DNA of 60,335 nucleotides from a virus (taxonomy: Duplodnaviria > Caudoviricetes): the IMG/VR virus record IMGVR_UViG_3300034418_003568, positions 1-60,335 of that record. One strand, written 5' to 3'. Shown piece by piece: positions 2,470 through 44,792 of this stretch. Position 1 is the stretch's first letter; every line of letters starts with the position of its first letter. The notes beneath the pieces are model-generated. The model saw only the letters and a program-made list of their open reading frames with translations, was not told where the DNA came from and ran no database searches. Both the position numbers and the translations under genes were made by a program.

Positions 2470-2943
2470 ATGGCTAACGTAATTGATGCAACAACCGGCG
2501 GCATAGTATCGACTGGCGATAGCACAGCAGCCCTTGATATCAAGACAGGCGGCACGACCGCTATTTCAATTGGTACGGGCCAATCGGTCACGATCAGCAA
2601 TGGACCTCTTTCGGATGCAGATGGCAACATTCGTGCGGTTCCGTCAGTCGGTGCAGCCAAGACCGCTGAATACACCTTGACCATTAGCGATGTCGGGAAC
2701 TATGTGACGGTGGGTTCCGGTGGCGGTATTACCCTTTTAGATGACGTATTCACAGCAGGCGATGTGGTTTCTGTCTTTAACGACACAACCGGCGATATCA
2801 CCATCACTTGCACCATCACGACCGCTTACTTAGCGGGAACCGATACGGATCAAGCGACTTTAACTCTAGCGACCCGTGGCATTGCGACGGTGTTATTCAC
2901 TTCTCCTTCGGCTTGCGTTGTAGCAGGGAATGTATCTGCATGA
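2470..2943 (+). CDS. Tail-associated structural protein
   Basis: 157-aa beta-rich ORF between two fibre genes. Confidence 0.6.
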   Translation: MANVIDATTGGIVSTGDSTAALDIKTGGTTAISIGTGQSVTISNGPLSDADGNIRAVPSVGAAKTAEYTLTISDVGNYVTVGSGGGITLLDDVFTAGDVVSVFNDTTGDITITCTITTAYLAGTDTDQATLTLATRGIATVLFTSPSACVVAGNVSA

Positions 2944-5900
2944 GTGGGATAATGATGCTCCTGCTCGCGGGGGCAATTGCTAAACAGCAATACATCGAAC
3001 GCAAAATCTTCACCTCCACGGGAAGCTGGGTTGCGCCTGCGGGTGTGACTCAAGTTGATTATCTTGTTGTCGCTGGGGGTGCAGGGGGTGGCCGAACTGG
3101 TGGCGGAGGTGGCGCAGGTGGGTTCCGTACAGGGACAGGTTTATCAGTTACTGCGGGTACCGATTACACCGTTACTGTTGGGGGTGGCGGAGCAGGAAGC
3201 AACACCGATTCTGTCGCAGGCTCATCTGGCGGTAATTCAGTATTTAGCACCATTACTTCAAATGGCGGTGGTGGAGGCGGGTCAAACCCAAATCCTTCTG
3301 CTGGCGCAAACGGTGGCTCTGGTGGCGGAGCAGGATGCACAAGTAGTGCAAACTCCGGTGGAACTGGCAACACGCCATCTACTAATCCGTCGCAAGGATC
3401 AAATGGTGGAGATAATGCTACTGGCGCACCCAATTATGGCGCGGGTGGAGGTGGCGGTGCATCGGCTGTAGGTGCAAACGGAACTAACACAACTGGCGGC
3501 AATGGCGGTGCGGGTACAGCCTCATCTATTTCTGGCGCATCTGCAACCTATGCAGGCGGCGGCGGCGGTGGAACTATTAGCGGAGGAACCGCAGGGTCGG
3601 GCGGTTCTGGTGGCGGGGGCGATGGTGGGACCGCTGGTGGAAATAATCCCGGCACGGCTGGAACTACAAATACGGGCGGTGGTGGTGGCGGCTCAAGTTA
3701 CAGCAGTTCGCCTGTCATCGGCGGCTCCGGCGGCTCCGGCGTTGTCATTCTGAAATACGCAGTTCCGGTTCAGACGGTCGTACAGACCTTCACTTCCTCT
3801 GGCACTTGGACTTGCCCCTCGAACGTGAGTGCGGTGGAGTACCTCGTTGTTGCGGGGGGTGGCGGTGGGGGATCATCTGGCATAAGTTTTAGTGTTGGCA
3901 TTTGTGGCGGCGGTGGCGGCGCAGGTGGCTTCCGTACCGGCACAGGGTTTAGCGTAACTGGCGGAACTGATTACACGATTACGGTTGGTGCTGGCGGTAG
4001 TTCTCAAACTGCTGGCAGTGATTCTGTATTCAGCACAATCACATCAACTGGAGGCGGAGGCGGTGGCGTACCGGGTGGCGCTCCGCAAACAGCAATTCCG
4101 CCTACTACTGGCGGCTCTGGCGGCGGCGGCGCTGGATCAAACCTCGCCAATACGCAAAACGGCGCAGCGGGAAACACGCCAAGCACTGCGCCAAGCCAAG
4201 GGAATGACGGCGGTAACGGGTTCGGAAGTGATGCCGACGCAGATGTGCAATGTTCTGGCGGTGGTGGTGGCGCTTCTGCTGTAGGCGCAAATGCCGCCTC
4301 TGCTGCTGGTGGGAACGGGGGCGGTGGTACTGCGTCAAGCATCAGTGGCTCTTCTGTAACCTACGCTGGCGGCGGTGGTGGTGGAAAAAGAACAACTAGC
4401 GGCTCACCGGGGACTGCTGGAACGGGTGGTTCTGGTGGCGGCGGAAATGGCGCTAAAGGTGCTGCGGCTGGGAGCGCCGGAACAGTAAACACGGGCGGCG
4501 GCGGCGGCGGCGCAGGCCAACAAGTGTCAACTACAAATGGAGGCACAGGCGGCTCCGGCATTGTCATTTTGAAATACACCCTTGGCACGGCTTCCATCCT
4601 GACATTCAAGTCCAGCCAAAACTTTGTGATGCCTGCTGGTGTGAGCAGTGTGGACTACCTCGTGGTGGGAGGTGGTGGTTCTGGCGGAGTTGGGGGAGGC
4701 GCTTCAAATGGTGGCGCAGGTGGCGGTGGAGCCGGGGGTATGCGTACCGGCACAGGTCTAACTGTTACTCCGGGTTCTAATTATACCGTTACTGTTGGTG
4801 GCGGGGGATCAAGCGGATCAAACGGTAGTGACTCCGTATTTAGCGCCATCACATCAACAGGCGGTGGCAAAGGCGGCAATTACAACAGTGGTAATGGTAG
4901 TAATGGTGGTTCTGGTGGCGGCGGTTCTGGTGGGTTTCCAAGTACTTTTGGAACTGGTGGAACTGGAAATACACCAAGTACATATCCATCCCAAGGCTCA
5001 AGCGGCGGAAATGGGGCTGCTGATAGCAATCCCCCCGGTGGCGGTGGTGGTGGTGCTTCTGCTGTTGGGTCGGCGGCAAGCGGGTCTACAGCCGGAAACG
5101 GCGGCGCTGGCACTGCATCATCTATTTCTGGCTCGTCCGTAACTTATGCTGGCGGTGGTGGGGGTGGTCGTTGGGTTGCCCCATATACCAATGGAACCGG
5201 AGGTGTGGGCGGCGGCGGGGATGGCGTAAGCGCAACTCCTGTAAATGCTGGAGCCGCTAACACAGGGGGAGGCGGTGGCGGTGGCACTTCTGCTGGCGGC
5301 GGCTCCGGCGGCTCCGGTATTGTCATCCTAAAGCTAAACTTTGGCGACTCCGAGCTTTACACCTTCACCTCCACGCAATCTTGGACAGCCCCAGCGGGTG
5401 CGGTGAGTGTGGACTACCTTGTCGTGGCTGGTGGTGGTGGCGGTGGAGGAACTAATCCTTCACAAGGTAGTGCTGGAGGCGGCGGCGCTGGTGGTTTCAG
5501 AACCGGAACCGGTCTTGCTATCACGGCTGGAACTTCCTATACCATCACGGTTGGTGCTGGCGGGACAAGTGGAACTGGTAGTGGTTCTCCTGGCAGTAGT
5601 TCTGTTTTTGATACGATTACCTCTGCTGGCGGTGGAGGTGGAGGTACTAACACCGCAGGCGGCGCAGGTGGATCGGGAGGTGGCGGTTCGGGAGTTGCAC
5701 CAGCTTCTGGTGGTGCAGGTAATACACCTTCAACTGTTCCTTCACAAGGAAATAACGGTGGAGATGGATCTCCTAGCGTACCTAATTATGGACAAGGTGG
5801 TGGTGGCGGAGCATCTGCCGTTGGAGCAAATGGAACATCCACGGCTGGTGGAAACGGTGGAGATGGAACTACATCAAATATTTCTGGAGGTTCTGTCACC

Positions 5901-35691: not shown

Positions 35692-35735
35692 TGGAACCTC
35701 CTTAGCTAGAAAGATAACACATTAACATTGATAAC

Positions 35736-36116
35736 ATGAAAAGGGAAGTATCTTTTACGGTGTTAGGTGAGCCAGCATCTAAGGCTAACAGCAGGAAACT
35801 TGTGCGCTTTGGTAACAGACCGGGGTTTATCAAGTCACAGAAAGCGCGTGACTATGTGAACACGTTCAAGTTGCAATGCCCTAAGTTAGATCCTTTGATG
35901 GACGGTGATCTGTCTGTGTCCATCACGATCTATTACGCATCACGCAGACCTGATCTGGATGAGTCAGTGATCTTAGATGCGATGCAAGATTTGATTTATC
36001 TCAATGACAGACAGGTCAAAGAGAAACATATCTACTGGGGATTAGATAAGGACAATCCACGATCAGAGATCACGGTCAAAAAGAAAGCCCCCGACAGAGA
36101 CCCATCGGGGGCTTGA
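35736..36116 (+). CDS. rusA: RusA-like Holliday junction resolvase
   Basis: GEP.SKAN, RRPDLD, D.MQ..IY.NDRQV and NPR motifs. Confidence 0.85.
   Translation: MKREVSFTVLGEPASKANSRKLVRFGNRPGFIKSQKARDYVNTFKLQCPKLDPLMDGDLSVSITIYYASRRPDLDESVILDAMQDLIYLNDRQVKEKHIYWGLDKDNPRSEITVKKKAPDRDPSGA
36078..36114 (-). terminator. Intrinsic terminator for a minus-strand transcript
   Basis: AAGCCCCCGA/TCGGGGGCTT stem; the T-tract (TTTCTTTTT) is on the minus strand only, where no gene ends. Confidence 0.7.
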
Positions 36117-36163
36117 CCCGCTTGGGGATTAGCAGGTAGTCTCAGAGGTGCAAGTCGAGACGG
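36078..36163 (-). ncRNA. Candidate anti-SD sRNA 1
   Basis: Promoter TTGCTA-N17-TAGTAT; hairpin GTCTC-GACTTGCACCTCT-GAGAC; hairpin ACCTGCT-AATCCCCA-AGCGGGT; terminator. Confidence 0.65.
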
Positions 36164-36168
36164 GTTGG

Positions 36169-36197
36169 ATACTAGACGTATTCACAATACATAGCAA
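36169..36197 (-). promoter_or_regulatory. Sigma70-type promoter for candidate sRNA 1
   Basis: TTGCTA (36197-36192), 17-nt spacer, TAGTAT (36174-36169). Confidence 0.6.
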
Positions 36198-36220
36198 CCC
36201 CCCGTCCTACTGCCGTCTCA

Positions 36221-36392
36221 AGCTGGGTGCAAGTTCCAGTTGGCTGAATGCCGTATCGCGATTCAGTCAGGGGTGAATGTTCTGAGGACGTAAAAAAATC
36301 AGACAGGCGTAAGCGATAGCTGGCTCCGTCCAGTATGGCGTTCCCGATCCCATTACAATGGGGTTTAGGGGGCGCTTTGCTCCTGCTTCACC
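36221..36392 (+). ncRNA. Candidate structured leader upstream of the primase-helicase
   Basis: Stems AGCTGG/CCAGTT, TGGCTGAAT/ATTCAGTCA, GGTGAA/TTCACC and GCGTTCCC..CCCAT/ATGGG..GGGGGCGC. Confidence 0.45.
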
Positions 36393-36455
36393 ATCCAGTA
36401 TGGGTTACTCAATAGATATTTATATAGATTTATTCACGGTGCATAGGGGAATTAC

Positions 36456-38150
36456 ATGAATCTACAACAAGCGGTGCTATCCCAAACTCGTAACAGTCGG
36501 ATACGCTGTCCGGTCTGTTCAGGTGACCGAAAGAAAAGTCATCTACGGACAATGGGAATTACGGTTGAAGATAATCGGGTGGTGTATCAGTGTTTCCACT
36601 GCAATACATCGGGTGCAATCAGAAAGGATCGTTTCATGTATCAAGTCAAAGAACTCAGCAATCAAAACATCAAACCCATTGATCCACCGACTAGTGTCAA
36701 GCCGGAGATTGTCGAGAAGTTTTTATTGTCACGGGGCATTGATCCTCAATCTGTACAGGACTACCCGATAGTCGGGGGAACCAAATGGTTTGGAGATATC
36801 CAGTCGGAAGTCGAAGCGATTGGATTCTTGTACGGAGATAGCCGCCATCCTCAAGCGATCAAGTGGCGCAGCATCGAAGGGAAATCTTTCACGCAACAGG
36901 GGTCAGCCCGATCCTTTTTTGGTTTGAACCAGCTACCCCAAGACAGCACCGAGCTAGTCATCTGCGAAGGGGAGATGGATGTACTTGCGCTTGCGAGCAT
37001 TGGGTTCCCTGTTCTGGGTTGTCCCAATGGCGCACCCCAAAAGATCAGTGATCGGAAGGTAGATCCCGAGGACGATGGCAAGTACTCGTTTGTGTGGGAC
37101 GCACGGGAACTGATTGAAAAAGCCGAGAAGATTATCTTCTGTGGAGATCAAGACACCGCAGGCGAGGCTCTCATCGAAGAGCTAGCGCGTCGAATCGGAC
37201 GGGCGAAATGTTGGAAGGTCACGTTACCTGAAAAGGATGCGAACGAAACCCTCCAGAAACATGGGGCTGATGCTTTACGAGAGGCTGTATTAGCCGCTCA
37301 ACCCCTGCCACTGGAAGGTGTGTACTCCCCGTCAGAATTCGAGGCTCAGATCCTCTCTCTGTACGATGACGGGGTAGTCAAGGGAGCCAGCACAGGTCTC
37401 TCGACCCTTGATCCCCTTTATACCGTACTGCCGGGGCAGCTATCAGTCTTTACAGGACTGCCGGGGTCAGGTAAATCCGAATTGATCGACCAGATATGCG
37501 TCAATATTGCCCTGCAAAAAGGATGGCGATTTGCGATAGCGTCTTTCGAGAATCCTCCTGCCATGCATATCGCCAAGCTCGCTGAGAAGGTGATTGGCAA
37601 ACCGTTTTTCGGTCAGGATCGAATGAACGAGGAAGAGCGGGACTATGCGTTGCAATTCCTGAACGATCATTTCGTTTTCTTGCAGTCCCATGATGGTGCG
37701 CCAAGCACGGTGCAGTCGATCATCGATAGAACCAAAGCGGCGGTCATGCGGATGGGGGTCAGAGGTTTGATCATCGACCCCTACAACTATTTGGATATGG
37801 GAACGGACAGCGAACACCAAGCGATCAGTAAGATGCTCACCGACATTGTGTTGTTCTGCAAAAGCCACGACCTCCATGCATGGTTTGTCGCGCATCCTGC
37901 TAAAGCGTTACCGGATAGTGGTGTACCGAAGGGTCAGCATATCTCTGGCAGCGCGGCGTGGTTTGCCAAAGCAGATATGGGTGTCACCGTCCATCGAAAC
38001 AAGAACCAGACCGAGGTTCATGTCTGGAAGTCACGATTCAAATGGGTGGGATCGGTTGGCATGGTGGACTTGAACTACCACATCCCTACGGGAACCTACT
38101 CAGACAAACAACACTGGAACAATTCCAGTGATTGGGATGTAGACCTGTGA
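36456..38150 (+). CDS. Bifunctional DNA primase-helicase (T7 gp4/Twinkle-like)
   Basis: Zn finger CPVC...CFHC; TOPRIM EGEMD, DQD.AG, KDANE; Walker A GLPGSGKS; IIDPYN; VAHP. Confidence 0.92.
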   Translation: MNLQQAVLSQTRNSRIRCPVCSGDRKKSHLRTMGITVEDNRVVYQCFHCNTSGAIRKDRFMYQVKELSNQNIKPIDPPTSVKPEIVEKFLLSRGIDPQSVQDYPIVGGTKWFGDIQSEVEAIGFLYGDSRHPQAIKWRSIEGKSFTQQGSARSFFGLNQLPQDSTELVICEGEMDVLALASIGFPVLGCPNGAPQKISDRKVDPEDDGKYSFVWDARELIEKAEKIIFCGDQDTAGEALIEELARRIGRAKCWKVTLPEKDANETLQKHGADALREAVLAAQPLPLEGVYSPSEFEAQILSLYDDGVVKGASTGLSTLDPLYTVLPGQLSVFTGLPGSGKSELIDQICVNIALQKGWRFAIASFENPPAMHIAKLAEKVIGKPFFGQDRMNEEERDYALQFLNDHFVFLQSHDGAPSTVQSIIDRTKAAVMRMGVRGLIIDPYNYLDMGTDSEHQAISKMLTDIVLFCKSHDLHAWFVAHPAKALPDSGVPKGQHISGSAAWFAKADMGVTVHRNKNQTEVHVWKSRFKWVGSVGMVDLNYHIPTGTYSDKQHWNNSSDWDVDL

Positions 38151-38626
38151 GCTACATCATCCTGAGTGAAGCCGAGCAAAGGCTTGCCAAGTTCCTCGCG
38201 CAAAGACGATACGAGAACGCACGAAACAAGGGACTGACGAACGCGAAGATGGGGGATCAGTCAAACGAACTGACCGATCTCGAAGGGATCGCATCCGAGA
38301 TTGCGTTCTGCAAACTTGCGAACATCTATCCGGATCTGGATCTGGATCACACGAACGCTGCTGATTGTTACTTGAGAGATGGCAGGGCAGTGGATGTAAA
38401 GTCCACGACCTACAAGACAGGACGATTGCTGTCGGTGCGGTGGAAGGATGTCACCAAGGTGGATGTATTTGTACTGATGGTCGGAGAGTTCCCCAAGTAT
38501 CGGTGCGCGGGGTTCATGCAAGCCAAGGATTTGATACAACCTCAGAGGCTCACCGATCTAGGTCATGGAACAGGGTATGCTGCAACCCAGAACGAATTGC
38601 AGCCCGTGGAATTCTTGTTCAAATAA
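38147..38626 (+). CDS. Hypothetical protein, possibly PD-(D/E)XK fold
   Basis: G...E.AF...D......VDVKST; GTGA overlap with the primase stop. Confidence 0.55.
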   Translation: MSYIILSEAEQRLAKFLAQRRYENARNKGLTNAKMGDQSNELTDLEGIASEIAFCKLANIYPDLDLDHTNAADCYLRDGRAVDVKSTTYKTGRLLSVRWKDVTKVDVFVLMVGEFPKYRCAGFMQAKDLIQPQRLTDLGHGTGYAATQNELQPVEFLFK

Positions 38627-38667
38627 AAACCCCCGACACCCCGAAGGATGCCGAGGGTGTCAGGGTT
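38621..38667 (-). terminator. Intrinsic terminator ending the early operon
   Basis: CCCTGACACCCTCG...CGGGGTGTCGGGGG followed by TTTTTATTT on the minus strand. Confidence 0.7.
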
Positions 38668-38851
38668 ATCGAACCCGAATGGAAGTCGGGCAAACCTCAT
38701 GCGAGCGAATGGTTTTAACGTACTCGCTCCCGAGGTAGTCGTAATAACAGATCTTATTCATGCCACTCAGCTTCTCGCCTTTGTAGAAGGCTGTCCCTGC
38801 AAAGGCACTTGCACTTGCGATCATGGCTAAAAGAACAATCCACTTTTTCAT
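38666..38851 (-). CDS. Small secreted protein with signal peptide and two Cys
   Basis: MKKWIVLLAMIASASAFA signal; CYYDYLGS...CPTSI; CAGGAG RBS. Confidence 0.65.
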   Translation of the reverse strand: MKKWIVLLAMIASASAFAGTAFYKGEKLSGMNKICYYDYLGSEYVKTIRSHEVCPTSIRVR

Positions 38852-39093
38852 ACACTCTCTCCTGCTTCGCGATAAGCCCAAGCCAGACATTGACTTTGGG
38901 AACCTTTGAAATATCTAAACTCATCACTGTTAGTGAATGCAACCCATCGATCTTTCCAGATCCTGCCCTCCGAAGGGAACACCCAAACCTTTGGGTTCCC
39001 GTTGGGATCATGGAAGGTCAGTGCCTCTGGAACTTTTTGTCTGTGAGTTTTTCCATCATCACCTTTGATACATAAGCCGCTGTCGATGCCCAT
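38848..39093 (-). CDS. Hypothetical protein (start uncertain)
   Basis: Stop overlaps the ATG of the next gene (ATGA). Confidence 0.4.
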   Translation of the reverse strand: MGIDSGLCIKGDDGKTHRQKVPEALTFHDPNGNPKVWVFPSEGRIWKDRWVAFTNSDEFRYFKGSQSQCLAWAYREAGESV

Positions 39094-39344
39094 TCCTCTG
39101 CCTCCTCTGGATCGTCAGTTTCAAACGCTCTTACCGCTAGGGTTCGTGCGAATTCAGACAACAGTTTTAAAACTCTGTGATCCTTGAACCGCATCTTCTC
39201 CAGATTCTCAGGCACGATATCAAAGATCAATCCGTTATCAGAATCGAACACCTCGAACATGGTGTCGAAGTCGATGTTGTTTTGAATCAACTCAGATTCA
39301 GTGAGCATATCGCCTGAGTAAGGATCAACAAACATTCTTTCCAT
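39018..39344 (-). CDS. Hypothetical protein
   Basis: GAGGTG RBS and ATG. Confidence 0.6.
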   Translation of the reverse strand: MERMFVDPYSGDMLTESELIQNNIDFDTMFEVFDSDNGLIFDIVPENLEKMRFKDHRVLKLLSEFARTLAVRAFETDDPEEAEEWASTAAYVSKVMMEKLTDKKFQRH

Positions 39345-39353
39345 AGCGTCACC

Positions 39354-39551
39354 TCAAAATGGCATTTCGTTTTCGTACTCTTCGTAGCAATCACCCATCC
39401 CTCGTGTCCATGGGTCAGTGGCTAATGCGTTTTCAATTCCTTTGATCCGCTCTTCGATCTTAGCTTGACCCATCAGGATTCGCTGTAACAAGAACGTGAT
39501 TTGATCTTGCTTTGTGTGTAGCGTGGATAGAATCAGTTCATCTTGGATCAT
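39354..39551 (-). CDS. Hypothetical protein
   Basis: CAGGAG RBS; ATGA coupling. Confidence 0.6.
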   Translation of the reverse strand: MIQDELILSTLHTKQDQITFLLQRILMGQAKIEERIKGIENALATDPWTRGMGDCYEEYENEMPF

Positions 39552-39733
39552 TGGTTAATCTCCTGTCTGTGATGTTGTAGCTCGACCCACTTGCGTGTCA
39601 GTGCGTTAGCAATCTCTGTGGATTCTTTTTGATACTGGGTTTGCAGTGCCTCGAACTTAGCAGCAGCGCGGTGTAGCTGTGCTTTGAGTTCCCGATACTC
39701 TGCATCCAACATCTTTTCGTAAGGGTCAGTCAT
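39548..39733 (-). CDS. Hypothetical coiled-coil protein
   Basis: GAGGTG RBS. Confidence 0.6.
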   Translation of the reverse strand: MTDPYEKMLDAEYRELKAQLHRAAAKFEALQTQYQKESTEIANALTRKWVELQHHRQEINQ

Positions 39734-39854
39734 GGCTCACCTCTATGTGGCACTGGGGTTCGTTGTCGCAGGGTTCGATGAACGCCGCCAGTAGATAGAT
39801 AGCTGCGATCAGTCCGAGCCGAACGGCTAGCCCGATTTTGTCAGTGCGGGTCAT
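39726..39854 (-). CDS. Small membrane protein (42 aa, not in ORF track)
   Basis: MTRTDKIGLAVRLGLIAAIYLLAAFIEPCD...; ATGA coupling. Confidence 0.5.
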   Translation of the reverse strand: MTRTDKIGLAVRLGLIAAIYLLAAFIEPCDNEPQCHIEVSHD

Positions 39855-40048
39855 GGCATAGCCGCCATGACTCGACTGACGATAGCCTCGACCTCACCCG
39901 CTTCGCGGCTCATGCCAATGGCATCTAAGTGCGATGCCAGTTCAAGACCCATCGCGATGGCGATGTCCGCAGACTCAGCCTTACGCTTTGCGCGTAAGCC
40001 CTCAAGCAGTCCGTCCCTCTCGCTAGCTGTTAGTGTTTCAGGAATCAT
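39851..40048 (-). CDS. Hypothetical early protein
   Basis: GAGGTGCAGC-ATG. Confidence 0.65.
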   Translation of the reverse strand: MIPETLTASERDGLLEGLRAKRKAESADIAIAMGLELASHLDAIGMSREAGEVEAIVSRVMAAMP

Positions 40049-40254
40049 GCTGCACCTCGCTCGTAATTAAGTTCGACTTCACGTTCATTGTCTGCGTCTT
40101 GTTTCGCAACGAAGAACGCTTGAAAAAGATCGACGTAAAATTGTTGCGACACTGGACGATTAGCATCAATTGCTTTGAGTTCCATGCTAGTGGCATGGCT
40201 CATGATGTAATCGATCTGCTGCTTGGTTAAGAGAACGGGGATCTTGCCACTCAT
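40045..40254 (-). CDS. Hypothetical early protein
   Basis: GGGGTGCAGC-ATG. Confidence 0.65.
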   Translation of the reverse strand: MSGKIPVLLTKQQIDYIMSHATSMELKAIDANRPVSQQFYVDLFQAFFVAKQDADNEREVELNYERGAA

Positions 40255-40514
40255 GCTGCACCCCGTTGATCGATCTGCAATTGCTCATCGATATATTCTT
40301 TCGCGGCATCCAAAGCCTCATGCCCTTCAAAGTTGATGAACTTGAAAGGTGCCGTGATTATTTCTGCCTTAGTCAAAAACAGCAGCGTTTTACGTTGCTG
40401 CATTCTGCCCACCAAAGTCAGCGAATCATAAGTTAGTTCGATTGAATGACCGCGATGCGTGACGGTGTCTGAGTCCTCTTTGAGGATGTATCCAGTAACG
40501 CCTGAGACATTCAT
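40251..40514 (-). CDS. Hypothetical early protein
   Basis: GGAGGTGCAGTC-ATG; 3' half of track ORF 40251..40790. Confidence 0.65.
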   Translation of the reverse strand: MNVSGVTGYILKEDSDTVTHRGHSIELTYDSLTLVGRMQQRKTLLFLTKAEIITAPFKFINFEGHEALDAAKEYIDEQLQIDQRGAA

Positions 40515-40681
40515 GACTGCACCTCCAATTGATATTCGTAAGCCCAATGACCGTTGTCTAAATCGTAGACGGGCTGATCGTTCTGCTCTCCACGGTCTAC
40601 GATCTGCGCGGGGATGGGGGCGCGAGACCCCCAACCTCCACGCCAAATGACTTGCTGTCCGACCTCGTACTGGTAGTTCAT
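40511..40681 (-). CDS. Small SH3-like early protein (56 aa, not in ORF track)
   Basis: MNYQYEVGQQVIWRGGWG...VYDLDNGHWAYEYQL; GAGGTGCAACA-ATG; coupled at both ends. Confidence 0.65.
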   Translation of the reverse strand: MNYQYEVGQQVIWRGGWGSRAPIPAQIVDRGEQNDQPVYDLDNGHWAYEYQLEVQS

Positions 40682-40932
40682 TGTTGCACCTCTGTAGCTT
40701 TGTTGATGGCGGTAAGCGTAGCTTTGGCGCTAGCTTTGATGGATGCCGAGCAAAGATCTGGCGCGAACTTGTGAGCGTAATACTCAGCATCAGTTCGTAA
40801 CGAATTCAGATGGGGATCGTCGGCGCTGACATAGACATGACGGTCAGTTGACTTAACGTCATCCGGTGTCGGCAACCCCCGCTCAGAGTGGTCGATGTAA
40901 AACTTCCAAGGAAGTCGAATAAGCTTTGACAT
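40678..40932 (-). CDS. Hypothetical early protein
   Basis: AAGGTGCAATC-ATG. Confidence 0.65.
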   Translation of the reverse strand: MSKLIRLPWKFYIDHSERGLPTPDDVKSTDRHVYVSADDPHLNSLRTDAEYYAHKFAPDLCSASIKASAKATLTAINKATEVQQ

Positions 40933-40948
40933 GATTGCACCTTTGCTG

Positions 40949-41140
40949 TTAACGCCAACCTGCGCTACGTTCTGTGTGGTAGTAGTGGTTTCCGATTTCA
41001 CGCGCAGCGGATTTAGCATCCGCATACGATTGATAGACGCGATCAAGAACTAATCCGGTGACGTTGTTGTAGACGCGCCATTCATTTCCGCATCCCTCAA
41101 CGCTAGTGTATCGGGTGACTGGGTATTCTTTGGTCTGCAT
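40949..41140 (-). CDS. Hypothetical early protein
   Basis: GAGGTGCAACGTC-ATG downstream of a promoter. Confidence 0.65.
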   Translation of the reverse strand: MQTKEYPVTRYTSVEGCGNEWRVYNNVTGLVLDRVYQSYADAKSAAREIGNHYYHTERSAGWR

Positions 41141-41167
41141 GACGTTGCACCTCATGTTTGTTTGCTA

Positions 41168-41197
41168 AGTATACATGATAACCTGTGTACCTGTCAA
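41168..41197 (-). promoter_or_regulatory. Internal early sigma70 promoter, copy B
   Basis: TTGACA-ggtacacaggttatcatg(18)-TATACT. Confidence 0.75.
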
Positions 41198-41382
41198 GCG
41201 CAGTCCCGCTCATGGTAGGGGCATACATCCAGAACTTCGATAACATCTGAGCCTAGTTCGCACAGCCTGTCTTCCACTTTGTCAGGGTCTGCGTTGCCCA
41301 ATTCCTCGGGCGTAAAACAGGTCACCGCATAGCCTTGTGCGCGAATCTTGTTTAGCACTTCAAAGATTTCATTCTCGCTCAT
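41194..41382 (-). CDS. Hypothetical early protein
   Basis: GAGGTGCAATC-ATG. Confidence 0.65.
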   Translation of the reverse strand: MSENEIFEVLNKIRAQGYAVTCFTPEELGNADPDKVEDRLCELGSDVIEVLDVCPYHERDCA

Positions 41383-41391
41383 GATTGCACC

Positions 41392-41571
41392 TCAAAATTT
41401 AATGGATTGGACTTGCACTTCAATGTCGATCCCCATGCGTTTGATATCGCGTAGGTTCACCGCATCGAATGTTTTTTGTTTCATTAGTTGAGCGAACTGC
41501 TCCGCGAGTTCGTTGACAGGGTAAAACTTGATCGACCCATACACGTTCCGCTGTTCGACTTGCACAGTCAT
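41392..41571 (-). CDS. Small early protein (59 aa, not in ORF track)
   Basis: MTVQVEQRNVYGSIKFYPVNELAEQFAQLMKQKTF...; GGAGG RBS. Confidence 0.65.
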   Translation of the reverse strand: MTVQVEQRNVYGSIKFYPVNELAEQFAQLMKQKTFDAVNLRDIKRMGIDIEVQVQSIKF

Positions 41572-41573
41572 GG

Positions 41574-41780
41574 TTAACCCTCCAAGGTGACGGTGTTGGC
41601 GAGTCGGTCAGATATCAGACCGTCGCGGTTTAGGTTGTCTACAAATACCGAGAACAAAAACCACACCAAGCTACGGTCACGGCTGTGACGTAGATGCGAG
41701 TAAGCTGCCCAGAATTCTTTGCGGACAGCACGGGCTGATGTAATTCGATTGATCATGATTGCTTGTGTATGGTTGTTCAT
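41574..41780 (-). CDS. Hypothetical early protein
   Basis: AAGGTG RBS; FVD.L.RDG.ISD motif. Confidence 0.6.
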   Translation of the reverse strand: MNNHTQAIMINRITSARAVRKEFWAAYSHLRHSRDRSLVWFLFSVFVDNLNRDGLISDRLANTVTLEG

Positions 41781-41956
41781 TGGTTCACCTTGTGTTTGAG
41801 TATTTCGCGGTATCGCTCCGCAGTCGTTGAATTGGGATAGGCGGCAATGTACTGACGCATACGCCACTCATAAACTTCTTGCTCTTTTTTAAACTCATCA
41901 AATCGCGGATCTTGCAGACGTTCTAACCCTGCTATTTGGCTTCTATCAATAATCAT
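41777..41956 (-). CDS. Small early protein (59 aa, not in ORF track)
   Basis: MIIDRSQIAGLERLQDPRF...; GGAGGTGCAATC-ATG; coupled at both ends. Confidence 0.6.
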   Translation of the reverse strand: MIIDRSQIAGLERLQDPRFDEFKKEQEVYEWRMRQYIAAYPNSTTAERYREILKHKVNQ

Positions 41957-42201
41957 GATTGCACCTCCAAGTTTTTTGTTGAGCTAGCTTTGATGGCTGC
42001 CTCTTCCGCATAGTACGCACGCCAGAGCGCACTGCGTGCGGTTAATAAATGTGGCGGGTAAGCATCTAGCGTGATGCCACATTCGCGTAGATGACCGAGC
42101 GCGTTGATAGCGTTTTCTATGCAGTCAAGCCGCAATTTGCGGATGTATTGAGCGTGGGATTGCACCTCACATTCAGTCTTAAACAACTCAGGCATACCCA
42201 T
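41953..42201 (-). CDS. Hypothetical early protein
   Basis: GGAGGTGCAATC-ATG downstream of a promoter. Confidence 0.6.
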   Translation of the reverse strand: MGMPELFKTECEVQSHAQYIRKLRLDCIENAINALGHLRECGITLDAYPPHLLTARSALWRAYYAEEAAIKASSTKNLEVQS

Positions 42202-42224
42202 GATTGCACCTCCAAGTTTTTTGC

Positions 42225-42254
42225 AGTATAGATGATAACTTGTGTACTTGTCAA
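42225..42254 (-). promoter_or_regulatory. Internal early sigma70 promoter, copy A
   Basis: TTGACA-agtacacaagttatcatc(18)-TATACT. Confidence 0.75.
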
Positions 42255-42529
42255 GCGAACGCTTCCTCTTCACCGAGTCTCTCGACAACCTCGTAGACGA
42301 TGCGCTCGCACTCATGGCGAGTGGGACGCTTGCTCCAACGTTGCTCATCACCGAAGCCGAGTGACCAGACCCAACCTCCGTAGACTTGCACCGCGCAACC
42401 CCTGTAGTTCAGCACCCTGTCACTGATTTGTTGTTGATAATCCATTTCGGTTTCTTTGGATTCGTGTCCAAGATGTCCCCATCGACGGTCATCATTGATG
42501 ATGTCTTGTTTTAAATTTTCATCGTTCAT
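42251..42529 (-). CDS. Hypothetical early protein
   Basis: GAGGTGCAAACA-ATG just downstream of hammerhead 1. Confidence 0.6.
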   Translation of the reverse strand: MNDENLKQDIINDDRRWGHLGHESKETEMDYQQQISDRVLNYRGCAVQVYGGWVWSLGFGDEQRWSKRPTRHECERIVYEVVERLGEEEAFA

Positions 42530-42561
42530 TGTTTGCACCTCTGGTTGATAATTTAGTTGTC

Positions 42562-42617
42562 TGATGGTCTCATCAGGCGTAGCACCACTACGCGACCCGC
42601 CGAAGCGGGTTTCGACC
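42562..42617 (-). ncRNA. Hammerhead ribozyme, type II (copy 1)
   Basis: GGTC GAAA CCCGC TTCG GCGGG TC^GCGTAG TGGTG CTACGC CTGATGA GACC ATCA: complete core, three stems, GUC site (cut 42594/42593). Confidence 0.93.
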
Positions 42618-42619
42618 TG

Positions 42620-42892
42620 TTAGATCACCCCAAGGCGGCGAAGACGTTCGTTGAATTTTTCAGCAATCGAATTGGTGATCACGCAATCAGGATCGAATGC
42701 GTCACCCGTGCGATATCTAACATCGTCAAGCATGGCAAGCCATGCAGCACGATCACCCGCGAAATACCAACGTCTGGCATTCGGTCTCGCGGTCTTCAGC
42801 CCGTAGACTTCCAGTACGTCGCCAGAATCCAGTGATAACTGGCGAACGATTACTGATGGAACGGATATTTCAAATTGCTGTTCCTGTAGCAC
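42620..42892 (-). CDS. Hypothetical early protein
   Basis: AGGAG RBS, GTG start; stop abuts hammerhead 1. Confidence 0.6.
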   Translation of the reverse strand: MLQEQQFEISVPSVIVRQLSLDSGDVLEVYGLKTARPNARRWYFAGDRAAWLAMLDDVRYRTGDAFDPDCVITNSIAEKFNERLRRLGVI

Positions 42893-42918
42893 AGTGATTC
42901 TCCTATCGGGTTTTGATC

Positions 42919-43083
42919 TTAGTCAACGTAATAATCGTCATCCCATAAGCTGACGCGTTGTTCTGCGCGTTTACGTACGAGACTGGGATCAAGCCATTCA
43001 TCGAATGGCGGAAATTCAAAGCCACAGGCTCGCGCTTCCGCACGTTCCTCGCAGTACTGCTGATATTTCAATTCGTCGGTCAT
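42919..43083 (-). CDS. Small early protein (54 aa, not in ORF track)
   Basis: MTDELKYQQYCEERAEARACGFEFPPFDEWL...; GAGGA RBS; ATGA coupling. Confidence 0.6.
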   Translation of the reverse strand: MTDELKYQQYCEERAEARACGFEFPPFDEWLDPSLVRKRAEQRVSLWDDDYYVD

Positions 43084-43304
43084 GCTGCGTCCTCTTCAGC
43101 ACCGAACACTAGCTCCCACTCGTCTTTCAGTTCCTCGTCAGAGCGGGTTGCAAATCCAATAAATCCATCACGCAAGTAGGCTTTCAGGACTGCATGATCG
43201 TTGTCTACAAAGTCAAGATCCCTGTCCTCATTCCACAAATAGCTGATCGATTCTTTGATCAACGCTTCGATAACTTGTTCTCTCGTTAAATCTTTGTATT
43301 GCAT
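43080..43304 (-). CDS. Hypothetical acidic early protein
   Basis: TAGGTGCAACT-ATG downstream of hammerhead 2. Confidence 0.65.
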   Translation of the reverse strand: MQYKDLTREQVIEALIKESISYLWNEDRDLDFVDNDHAVLKAYLRDGFIGFATRSDEELKDEWELVFGAEEDAA

Positions 43305-43330
43305 AGTTGCACCTATGTGGGTTGGTTGTC

Positions 43331-43386
43331 TGATGGTCTCATCAGTACGGGCATCACCCGTAGACCCGCCGGAGCGGGTTTCGACC
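43331..43386 (-). ncRNA. Hammerhead ribozyme, type II (copy 2)
   Basis: GGTC GAAA CCCGC TCCG GCGGG TC^TACGGG TGATG CCCGTA CTGATGA GACC ATCA (cut 43363/43362). Confidence 0.93.
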
Positions 43387-43388
43387 TG

Positions 43389-44264
43389 TTAGGCGGCTTC
43401 CTTAAGTTCCTCAGACTCACGACCGAGCAACAGTTCGGATGCCTTGCGAGCAAGCGATGCAGCTTTAAAGATCGCCCGTTTGTCATTCTTGAGAACGCTC
43501 AGCCAGTTGTTTAAATACTGGGCGTGATCGACTCGCGGGGAGTTGGTGATACCGAGTTCCGCGCACAAAAACGCCGCACCTAGCTCCGCGACCAGTTCCT
43601 CGAACGCATAGTCTGAGTTACCGAAACTTGCTAGCTTGTGACGATTCAAGCGGGTAGCATGACCCGTCCAATGCACCAACTCATGCGAGAGGGTGCTGTA
43701 GTAGCACTCAGTCGCTGTCGAATGCTCAGTGCCGCGAAACAGTGACTTGATCGGCATATGCACAAAGTCACCCGCAGGTGAGTAAAAAGCGCGGGATTCA
43801 GGCGATTCGCGGATATCCGCACCTGTCCCTTTTGCCCATGCTTCGACGGATTCCATATCCATGACTTCGACCGGATCGTCTGATGGGTTGTCGAAGCTGC
43901 GAGCGTAGTCACCCTCGACCTGTTCCGAGTTGAACACGGTCGAATATCTGATCATTGGGAACACCGAGACGTTACCCTCTGAATCCTCTTTTTTCAGCAT
44001 CTTGAAATAGGTCACCATGTGACCTTTCGCACCCTTTTTGACGGTGCAATTCTTTGATGCCCATTGCTGATAACCCGCCCATGCGTTGGACTGAAAGGGC
44101 GTGAAATTCAACATGAGGATATTGACTCCGCGATAGTTCCGCTGAGTCACTGCGTTGAATGGGCGTAGGCTTGTCTTGCCTTTATTGAACGGGTTCACCC
44201 AGTCCGCACCGGATTCGGTCATTTGCTTGATCACTTGATCTGTCACGGTTTGATAAATATCCAT
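43389..44264 (-). CDS. ardC: Antirestriction protein ArdC (ssDNA-binding plus zincin-like domain)
   Basis: DIYQ.VTD..I, YRGVN, VFN.EQV, AFYSP..D...MP, HELVHWTGH..RL.R, YA.EELVAELGAAFL, YL..WL.VLK.DKRAIF.AA. Confidence 0.92.
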   Translation of the reverse strand: MDIYQTVTDQVIKQMTESGADWVNPFNKGKTSLRPFNAVTQRNYRGVNILMLNFTPFQSNAWAGYQQWASKNCTVKKGAKGHMVTYFKMLKKEDSEGNVSVFPMIRYSTVFNSEQVEGDYARSFDNPSDDPVEVMDMESVEAWAKGTGADIRESPESRAFYSPAGDFVHMPIKSLFRGTEHSTATECYYSTLSHELVHWTGHATRLNRHKLASFGNSDYAFEELVAELGAAFLCAELGITNSPRVDHAQYLNNWLSVLKNDKRAIFKAASLARKASELLLGRESEELKEAA

Positions 44265-44289
44265 AGTTGCACCTATGTGGGTTGATGGC

Positions 44290-44344
44290 TGACGGTCTCG
44301 TCAGGCAGCGCGTCACGCTGCGACGGGCAAAGCCCGTTTCGACC
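44290..44344 (-). ncRNA. Hammerhead ribozyme, type II (copy 3)
   Basis: GGTC GAAA CGGGC TTT GCCCG TC^GCAGCG TGACG CGCTGC CTGACGA GACC GTCA (cut 44322/44321). Confidence 0.92.
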
Positions 44345-44616
44345 TAGTGGGATGCGAGCCACCGAGTACAGGCGGCTGCTACAAATGGGCGTCTTACCCA
44401 TAAGCGCGGGTGTTTTCGCACCACAAATTGCTCGCCAATCAGGTATCTACCCGAGTACCTGAGCGGCTCGCAACAGTCCCATTTGCCTGTTAGCTCGCGC
44501 ATGGCTGATGTTGCTGCAATCCGCGCAGCGACGGCGTTATCGTCGTACAGCGGCGATAGCTTGCAGGCGATCCGATACAGTCGGCGAATTGCCGAGAATT
44601 GCTGACGCTTGCTCAT
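44344..44616 (-). CDS. Hypothetical basic early protein
   Basis: TGATG coupling to the upstream ORF; its TAG stop overlaps stem II of hammerhead 3. Confidence 0.55.
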   Translation of the reverse strand: MSKRQQFSAIRRLYRIACKLSPLYDDNAVAARIAATSAMRELTGKWDCCEPLRYSGRYLIGEQFVVRKHPRLWVRRPFVAAACTRWLASH

Positions 44617-44726
44617 CACTTGCCCCCCTTTTTGACTGGAACCCACACTGGAACCGCATCGACCGGATGCAGCATCCAGTAACCCTTCTTGCTTGATTTG
44701 ATCAATTGCTTGAATGACTTGCTCAT
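44616..44726 (-). CDS. First early gene, 36-aa basic peptide (not in ORF track)
   Basis: MSKSFKQLIKSSKKGYWMLHPVDAVPVWVPVKKGGK; GAGGTGCAAGTC-ATG. Confidence 0.55.
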   Translation of the reverse strand: MSKSFKQLIKSSKKGYWMLHPVDAVPVWVPVKKGGK

Positions 44727-44792
44727 GACTTGCACCTCATGACTGTAGTGGACTCTATGCAACGCACTCAGCGAATGCGCTCTACAGAGTCG

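Follow-up and report, generated by a model that had tools for sequence, protein, structure and literature searches.

A small RNA gene between rusA and a primase/helicase gene

We analyzed IMG/VR virus record IMGVR_UViG_3300034418_003568, which represents a complete uncultured phage, spans 60,335 bp and has direct terminal repeats; we refer to its whole length as the window. On its plus strand a gene for a rusA-like Holliday junction resolvase is followed by a gene for a T7 gp4-like primase/helicase, and the gap between them, together with the 3′ end of rusA, contains a minus-strand gene for a small RNA (sRNA), which is the subject of this report. A sequence-only reading of the window had described here a promoter, two hairpins and a terminator that belonged to no gene, and all four parts are present where it had placed them:

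36169-36197, minus strand: sRNA promoter of the sigma-70 type, with a −35 box TTGCTA (36197-36192), a 17-nt spacer and a −10 box TAGTAT (36174-36169)
36139-36161, minus strand: hairpin 1, at the 5′ end of the sRNA, GUCUC-[13-nt loop GACUUGCACCUCU]-GAGAC; the loop includes CACCUC, a hexamer resembling an anti-Shine–Dalgarno (anti-SD) sequence
36116-36137, minus strand: hairpin 2, predicted by folding, with the C-rich loop AAUCCCCA; compensatory changes in four of its eight pairs across relatives
36078-36114, minus strand: intrinsic terminator of the sRNA, a 13-bp stem (36114-36085) and a U-run to about 36078; compensatory changes in 6 of the 13 pairs
35736-36116, plus strand: rusA-like Holliday junction resolvase gene (PHROG 140, E 5.5e-13), convergent with the sRNA
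36456-38150, plus strand: T7 gp4-like primase/helicase gene (PHROG 239, E 7.3e-77), the proposed object of control

The promoter agrees with the consensus at 8 of 12 positions, which placed it under the threshold of our promoter scan. At the other end of the gene the terminator overlaps the last codons of rusA, with ~38 terminal bases of the sRNA lying within the end of that gene. This terminator does not lie at the end of any minus-strand gene, since its neighbors, rusA and the primase/helicase gene, are both on the plus strand. Read on the plus strand, the terminator hairpin is followed by TTGACC and lacks a T-run, and it should therefore act on the minus strand only and not stop rusA transcripts.

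The predicted fold of the 84-nt RNA had a free energy of −39.3 kcal/mol, compared with −23.8 ± 2.9 kcal/mol for 200 shuffled sequences (z = −5.33), none of which folded as well. In this minimum-energy fold the UC of CACCUC is paired, leaving an 8-nt loop, CUUGCACC. Rfam, to which the sequence-only reading had also pointed, offered no family at either stringency: Rfam 15 at the gathering threshold gave no match in the whole window or in five related loci, and permissive scans of the gap in the window and in relatives returned chance-level matches only, the best being to the terminator half of the His leader at 17.8 bits against a threshold of 49.

The small RNA is conserved as a structured minus-strand RNA

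Relatives were collected by searching with the primase protein (25 loci) and with a gapped pattern of the sRNA (23 IMG/VR contigs). A covariance model built from four sequences found the sRNA at 47.6–113 bits in 27 of the 49 sources searched, which correspond to the window and 26 loci, or to the window and 23 contigs, three contigs being present twice. Three further contigs, reached through the neighboring leader described below, also carry the sRNA and bring the total to 27 contigs. The model found no hit in the more distant primase relatives (L005–L026).

Among the 19 distinct sRNA sequences, 92.7% of cells in paired columns formed pairs, and 11 of the 26 pairs had changes on both sides, in an alignment that was fitted to the covariance model and is thus somewhat biased toward the structure. 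The covariation score was 0.278, compared with 0.126 for shuffles (none of 500 scored as high), and sliding the partners by 1–3 columns reduced pairing to 30–53%. Among the paired positions we counted 37 G-U and 2 A-C combinations, with 34 cells holding other non-pairs, and this asymmetry indicates that the minus (sRNA) strand, rather than its complement, is the structured one. The promoter is kept as well, with promoter-like hexamers (TTGnnn and TAnnnT) in every relative at a fixed spacing of 17 nt, while the sequence of the spacer varies. Together, the conserved promoter, the covarying structure, the terminator and the RNA-type strand asymmetry give strong support to the claim of an sRNA gene made in the sequence-only reading, and they identify a genuine, new small-RNA family.

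Conservation is uneven along the RNA. The foot of the hairpin 1 stem (four pairs, GUCU/AGAC) is invariant in all 19 distinct sequences, as are the other stem feet and the linkers, and loop 1 is the most variable segment of the entire sRNA. It occurs in ~10 variants, with UUGCACCUC in the window, L042 and L049, UUGCACCUU in L048, and UCGCAACUC, UCGCAAAUC, UCGCACUUC, UUGCACUUC, UUGCAACUC, AGUACCUC, CAGCAAUCGC and UAGCAAGGC as further forms.

Two other observations concern the family as a whole. When the two invariant sRNA blocks, AGACUACC and GGUCAAGCCCC, are read on the plus strand they spell TTGACC-N18-TAGTCT (36113-36118 and 36137-36142), with a spacing that is constant in the family save for 17 nt in L034/L043. 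As judged from these motifs, this could be a plus-strand promoter that starts the leader from inside the sRNA gene and faces the sRNA promoter, with the two starts about 13 bp apart. In addition, the covariance model gave a weak second hit (13.2–21.5 bits) at 38618-38697 on the minus strand, on the terminator of the early operon, and at a like place about 2.5–2.7 kb upstream of the sRNA in L042, L049, L046, L028 and L054; this may perhaps reflect terminator likeness alone.

The small RNA co-occurs with one of two large structured leaders

The ~260 nt between the sRNA promoter and the ATG of the primase/helicase gene form a leader that is strongly conserved and comes in two unrelated forms, type A in the window and seven other contigs, and type B in 19 contigs. 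The features relevant here, together with the operon on the far side of rusA, are:

36198-36455, plus strand: type A leader of the primase/helicase gene; 76% mean column identity in a 7-sequence alignment, with long invariant blocks
36223-36239, plus strand: invariant leader hairpin CUGG-GUGCAAGUU-CCAG, with 9 nt of its loop (36226-36234) complementary to loop 1 of the sRNA
L030 8990-9330, minus strand: type B leader; at a like place in L029, L031, L034, L040, L042, L044, L049 and L055
35691 to 29191, minus strand: exonuclease/Sak recombination operon, with a first gene of 80 aa

Both forms are predicted to adopt structures of several helices on the strand of the primase gene. RNAalifold predicted 77 pairs over the whole aligned type A gap, 16 of them with double changes, and some of the helices are rich in U-G pairs, which fit the plus strand only (A-C on the other strand). 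Type B contains invariant stretches of up to about 40 bases, and its 77 predicted pairs include 14 with double changes and several invariant G-U pairs. Neither leader matched an Rfam family, and the type A leader is possibly a new class of structured RNA. We also considered a small open reading frame (ORF) or type I toxin within the leader and rejected it, as otherwise conserved blocks of the leader contain indels of 1, 2 and 5 nt, which speaks against a coding sequence.

The type A leader also contains two direct repeats on the plus strand, CCGTCCAGTATGGC (36326-36339) and CCATCCAGTATGGG (36391-36404), placed on either side of its most conserved hairpin. In relatives the two copies vary in concert, one example being TCCGGTATCTC and another TCAGGCATAG. 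Since repeats in direct orientation cannot form a helix with one another, they may be sites for a protein or a third RNA.

The association of sRNA and leader was strict. The sRNA was present in all 7 contigs found with the type A pattern and in all 18 found with the type B pattern; conversely, every one of the 27 contigs with the sRNA had a leader of type A (8) or type B (19), and neither leader was seen without the sRNA. The arrangement was also fixed, with the order primase, leader, sRNA, rusA, then the 80-aa gene, exonuclease and Sak, and with primase, leader and rusA transcribed in one direction and the sRNA and the exonuclease operon in the other, in 12 of 12 contigs mapped; a rusA homolog was the convergent neighbor of the sRNA in 18 of 24 loci. 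An informative comparison came from L005, a complete phage of 60.3 kb in which the gene order is kept and the primase is 66% identical. This phage had no sRNA hit with E below 1, and its rusA-primase gap (2505-3010 region) measured 115 nt, was very AT-rich and contained no leader. The strict co-occurrence, together with the joint absence in L005, suggests that the sRNA and the leader were gained or lost as one unit. The rusA coding sequence of L005 contains an 11-nt stretch identical to the 3′ arm of the terminator in the window.

We asked how far sRNA loop 1 might pair with the leader outside the region in which the two would overlap. The duplex between loop 1 of the window and the invariant leader hairpin was calculated at −17.7 kcal/mol, compared with −13.9 ± 2.3 kcal/mol for shuffled loops, of which 6 of 60 were as good. 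The corresponding comparison found 0–1 of 60 shuffles as good in L031/L032/L027, where the site lies by the primase SD, and 3–6 of 60 in L037/L046. A kissing partner for loop 1, represented by a GUG-YR-AGU motif in both leader types, was nevertheless rejected as a general rule, as it beat shuffles in some phages only.

An inverted repeat brackets the sRNA promoter, with the arms GAGACGG at 36157-36163 and CCGTCTC at 36213-36219; one arm is the complement of the sRNA 5′ end. The repeat varies on both arms in some lineages, and it could be either a helix in the leader RNA or a protein operator with two half-sites. A second, short inverted repeat, centered on the −10 box, also varies in its arms from one relative to another.

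Complementarity of loop 1 to early ribosome-binding sites

Beyond the sRNA gene itself, the sequence-only reading had proposed that loop 1 acts in trans, binding an extended SD sequence (GAGGUGCAA...) shared by the ribosome-binding sites (RBSs) of about 13 early genes and thereby shutting off an early regulon. The genes in question are these:

38666-44738, minus strand: early-gene block of small genes, with GGTGCA-type SDs at 13 starts; their RBSs are the proposed targets

The complementarities reported for individual sites are exact (12 nt at 44727-44738, 11 nt at 42533-42543 and 11 nt at 41555-41565), and GGTGCA-type SDs do stand at thirteen early starts, this SD flavor being confined to the early block. 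With the gene calls of our own analysis, 12 of 20 early starts were exactly complementary to the loop over 7 nt or more, and predicted pairing reached −12 kcal/mol or better at 14 of 20 early start regions, compared with 14 of 61 other starts. Plainly shuffled loops reached that energy at a mean of 2.2 early starts, and none of 100 reached 14. However, when CACCUC was kept and only its flanks were shuffled, the mean was 9.9 and 15 of 100 controls reached 14 of the 20 early starts. Nor was the corresponding 12-mer enriched over the whole window, where allowing up to three mismatches gave 57 matches compared with 50 ± 6 expected. These controls show that the enrichment at early starts is real but comes from the anti-SD hexamer meeting GAGGUG-type SDs, and that the match of the extended 'address' beyond the hexamer is not significant.

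If the loop addressed a regulon, the loop and the early SDs should change together in related phages. We called early genes in 16 contigs, 2.45–9 kb upstream of the sRNA and on its strand, requiring an ATG, an SD-like motif, at least 40 aa and no overlap. Three contigs with nearly the same loop, namely the window, L050 and L057, had AGGTGCA at 11 of 20, 3 of 15 and 1 of 10 early starts, respectively, and each of the other 13 had it at 0–1 of 5–18 starts. These three, whose loop has UUGCACCUC, also had the most early starts that match their own loop exactly over 7 nt or more (12/20, 5/15 and 2/10), with 0–2 of 5–18 in the remaining 13. Relatives with other loops used plain GGAG-type RBSs, such as ACAGGAGAAC, and in none of the 16 contigs was a new loop accompanied by a matching new SD flavor. 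Thus, the loop has ~10 variants that the RBSs do not follow, to the point that L057, with nearly the same loop as the window, has AGGTGCA at just one start. The converse, which the sequence-only reading had named as evidence against its own proposal, was also seen: L051 and L059, in which the loop reads GUACCUC, retained one or two GGTGCA-type sites.

Other features of the sRNA and its supposed targets fit a trans-acting regulator equally poorly. Loop 1 is the least conserved part of the sRNA, unlike a seed, and part of CACCUC is occupied by pairing in the minimum-energy fold. Duplicated cassettes account for many of the shared RBSs: one pair of minus-strand genes (ATGs at 42201 and 41956) has the same 22 nt before the start, and another (ATGs at 44264 and 43304) the same 20 nt, which suggests that the common early RBS arose partly by duplication or recombination. 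A comparative search, crude in that it used duplex energy only, found no consistent trans target in a set of 14 phages: the 11 gene families considered, all of them with members in 7 or more of these phages, had mean z values between −0.36 and +0.80, and the primase itself had a mean z of 0.03 (range −3.1 to +1.6). Shut-off of an early regulon through an SD address, for which the pairing at 14 of 20 early starts, the exact 12- and 11-nt matches and the confinement of GGTGCA to the early block speak, is thus unsupported by the relatives, and we consider it improbable. Of the sequence-only interpretation overall, the sRNA gene is well supported and the regulon is not.

The best reading of the complementarity is that it is a by-product of a fast-changing loop that here happens to spell CACCUC, the early genes of this phage having SDs of the GAGGUG type. 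There is a slim chance that in one lineage (the window, L049/G001 and L042/G006) the loop of a countertranscript was co-opted as an RNA copy of the anti-SD that binds as many as 14 early RBSs of the GAGGUGCAA type, coupling in this way the onset of replication control to early shut-off. If so, the element would be an RNA counterpart of T4 RegB/RegA, and the duplicated RBS cassettes of the window phage would represent a regulon growing toward the loop. A full-text literature search, which did not extend to supplements, returned neither this element nor an anti-SD phage sRNA regulon. There is a lesson here for sequence scans, in that a loop spelling the anti-SD hexamer will always resemble a master regulator of genes with strong SDs; only comparison with relatives exposed the 'address' as not conserved.

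A proposed local countertranscript

What the analysis does show is the anatomy of the sRNA gene, its conservation across the family, its structure on the minus strand, its fixed position and its constant company of a leader before the primase/helicase gene. We therefore favor, with moderate confidence, a reading in which it acts locally, tuning primase/helicase expression or replication by pairing, by polymerase opposition, or by both. Our scans found neither a terminator-like site on the plus strand between rusA and primase nor a canonical plus-strand promoter in the gap. Given these results and the common orientation of the two genes, a rusA-primase transcript that includes the exact complement of the sRNA is the default expectation. 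Such a transcript would carry this complement just upstream of the structured leader, and the sRNA, which together with the leader would form one module, would be transcribed against it. Pairing would start at the hairpin 1 loop, and pairing, collision of opposed RNA polymerases, or both would lower or re-time expression of the primase/helicase and hence replication.

The proposed cis-antisense arrangement would explain why loop 1 is free to change, as the target changes with the loop automatically, and also why the sRNA keeps its position and travels with the leader. A hypervariable loop is the opposite of the conserved seed of a trans-acting RNA and is what is expected of a cis-antisense one; in plasmid countertranscripts, loop changes create new specificities.

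Several results weigh against this reading. The plus-strand RNA across the sRNA gene is something that we infer from the layout of the sequence. We had considered the inverted repeat around the sRNA promoter as proof of a plus-strand leader RNA reaching into the sRNA gene and dropped it, as cognate arms paired hardly better than non-cognate ones (7.6 versus 7.1 bp) and the G-U count spoke for the plus strand in 4 sequences and for the minus strand in 9. The pairing of loop 1 with the non-overlapping leader beat shuffles only in the window, L031/L032/L027 and L037/L046, and in the other rows 19–59 of 60 shuffles were as good. The blocks AGACUACC and GGUCAAGCCCC of the sRNA are invariant and have no explanation under the countertranscript model. 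Finally, the exonuclease/Sak operon has no clear sigma-70 promoter, which keeps alive one of the rival explanations considered below.

Genome context and rival explanations

The structural and packaging genes of the window (terminase, portal, head, tail fibre and tail spike) are on the plus strand, megablast of phage records found no close cultured relative, and the best tblastn matches of the primase were three cyanophage records at 35.5% identity. No lysogeny genes were seen among the few proteins scanned, and a scan for tRNA and tmRNA found nothing. The product of one early gene (43389-44264, minus strand), 291 aa long, falls into a family of anti-restriction proteins by its match to PHROG 7245 (E 4.8e-75). 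On the far side of rusA, the divergent starts of rusA and of the 80-aa first gene of the exonuclease operon are only 45 nt apart (35692-35736), and rusA has no recognizable SD. In some relatives the first ORF of the exonuclease operon, called as the longest ORF, runs over the rusA start. Given this overlap and the 45-nt divergent gap, the promoters of rusA and the exonuclease operon must sit within coding sequence or far upstream.

This arrangement raises the question of whether the sRNA could be the terminated leader, or attenuator, of the exonuclease/Sak operon, with a phage antiterminator that would allow read-through of the terminator. A promoter followed by a short terminated RNA without a gene fits that class, whose lambda representative has Q acting at PR′-tR′ and the short 6S RNA as the terminated product. 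Moreover, the operon starts about 380–620 nt downstream on the sRNA strand in every relative and lacks a consistent sigma-70 promoter, with the overlap of its first ORF and the rusA start in some relatives pointing the same way. However, the read-through transcript would need to run antisense across the whole of rusA in every relative; several relatives have TTGACA/TTGACT-like −35 and TAGnTn boxes immediately ahead of the first gene of the operon; an antiterminator gene was not identified; and both the coupling of the sRNA to the primase leader and its joint absence with the leader from L005, where the operon is kept, would be left unexplained. We consider this explanation unlikely. Doubtful, too, is an effect at the level of a replication origin, in which an origin located in the rusA-primase gap would be activated or primed, either through transcription from this promoter or by its RNA product. 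A role of this kind was at one time suggested for lambda oop, and activity of the pO promoter does influence the function of ori-lambda. The unit does lie directly upstream of a replicative primase/helicase gene, the type A direct repeats (36326-36339 and 36391-36404) co-vary between phages and resemble protein sites, the primase RBS is preceded by AT-rich sequence, and the L005 gap at this place is AT-rich. According to one study of lambda (PMC3985674), active pO reduces transcription from pR and is required for replication to be efficient. Against an origin, the compensatory changes and one-strand G-U pairs of the leader argue for an RNA and not a DNA element, and the sRNA is transcribed away from the gap.

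A trans-acting role on host mRNAs, like that of lambda PreS/LPR1 on E. coli replication genes, would give the C-rich loop 2 and the anti-SD-like loop 1 host RBSs to bind, and phage sRNAs with host targets do exist, as described in a preprint (bioRxiv 10.1101/2024.10.31.621285). The loops are variable and not conserved, however, and no host or prophage link was found: the gapped pattern matched 57 places in representative bacterial and archaeal genomes, which is about chance by our own estimate, and the covariance model confirmed none of the 57. We consider a role on host mRNAs unlikely. The most skeptical view, that there is no RNA gene here and that the promoter- and terminator-like sequences serve rusA coding or DNA-level signals, can draw on the part of the terminator 3′ arm (GGGGGCTTGAC, plus strand) that is also found within rusA of L005, a phage without the sRNA, and on the invariant blocks, which could be signals of the other strand. 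Set against it are the compensatory changes in two helices, the excess of G-U over A-C (37 versus 2) and the conserved promoter geometry, which together make it highly improbable.

Significance

To our knowledge, few small RNAs are known from phages without signs of lysogeny, and almost none from uncultured phages. The present family is well supported, by its occurrence in 27 contigs and by covariation, and it is tied to two unrelated, large and highly conserved structured RNAs before a replicative primase/helicase gene. If antisense replication control is indeed its role, a group of environmental phages would be using either a plasmid-style countertranscript or the kind of promoter opposition known from lambda oop/pO, and the locus would also provide two new classes of structured RNA for study.

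Comparison with known systems

The proposed regulon follows the logic of T4 RegB and RegA, which shut off many early mRNAs through a feature of the RBS; RegB and RegA are proteins, however, and the RNA version is not supported by the relatives. P22 sar, P1 c4 and P4 CI are small RNAs that act on one or two sites in the immunity operons of temperate phages, and P4 CI also controls an operon with a primase/helicase gene. The likeness lies in small phage RNAs that pair with phage mRNAs. The sRNA described here differs in that we found no homology to them, no immunity context and no conserved repeated complementary sites.

The plasmid countertranscripts (R1 CopA, the pT181/pIP501 RNAs and ColE1 RNA I) are structured antisense RNAs in the leaders of replication genes, with families in Rfam. 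The phage sRNA resembles them in its 5′ stem-loop, in which a fast-changing loop sits on a stem that is kept, in its terminator hairpin, and in its proposed action on the expression of a replication gene. It differs in having no match to an Rfam countertranscript or RNA I family and in being next to a phage primase/helicase gene rather than a plasmid rep gene, and its overlap with a target transcript is presumed from gene orientation.

The closest positional analog is lambda OOP/pO. As given in PMC3985674, OOP is antisense to cII and lies between cII and the replication gene O, and pO lowers pR-driven transcription and is needed for efficient replication. Like OOP, the sRNA is a short RNA with its own promoter and intrinsic terminator and lies between an upstream gene, whose 3′ end it overlaps, and a replication gene; it would also, like OOP, oppose the main transcript running into that gene. 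There are also clear differences. No sequence or structure relationship to OOP was detected, the promoter is about 260–290 nt upstream of the replication gene and not by its start codon, the stretch shared with the upstream ORF ranges from 7 to 46 nt and so is not conserved, and the phages have direct terminal repeats, with the few proteins scanned giving no sign of lysogeny. Most distinctively, the sRNA is coupled to a large structured leader. It is thus a new family of a known kind of element, the phage antisense or countertranscript RNA beside a replication gene, in a setting made unusual by its two alternative large structured leaders.

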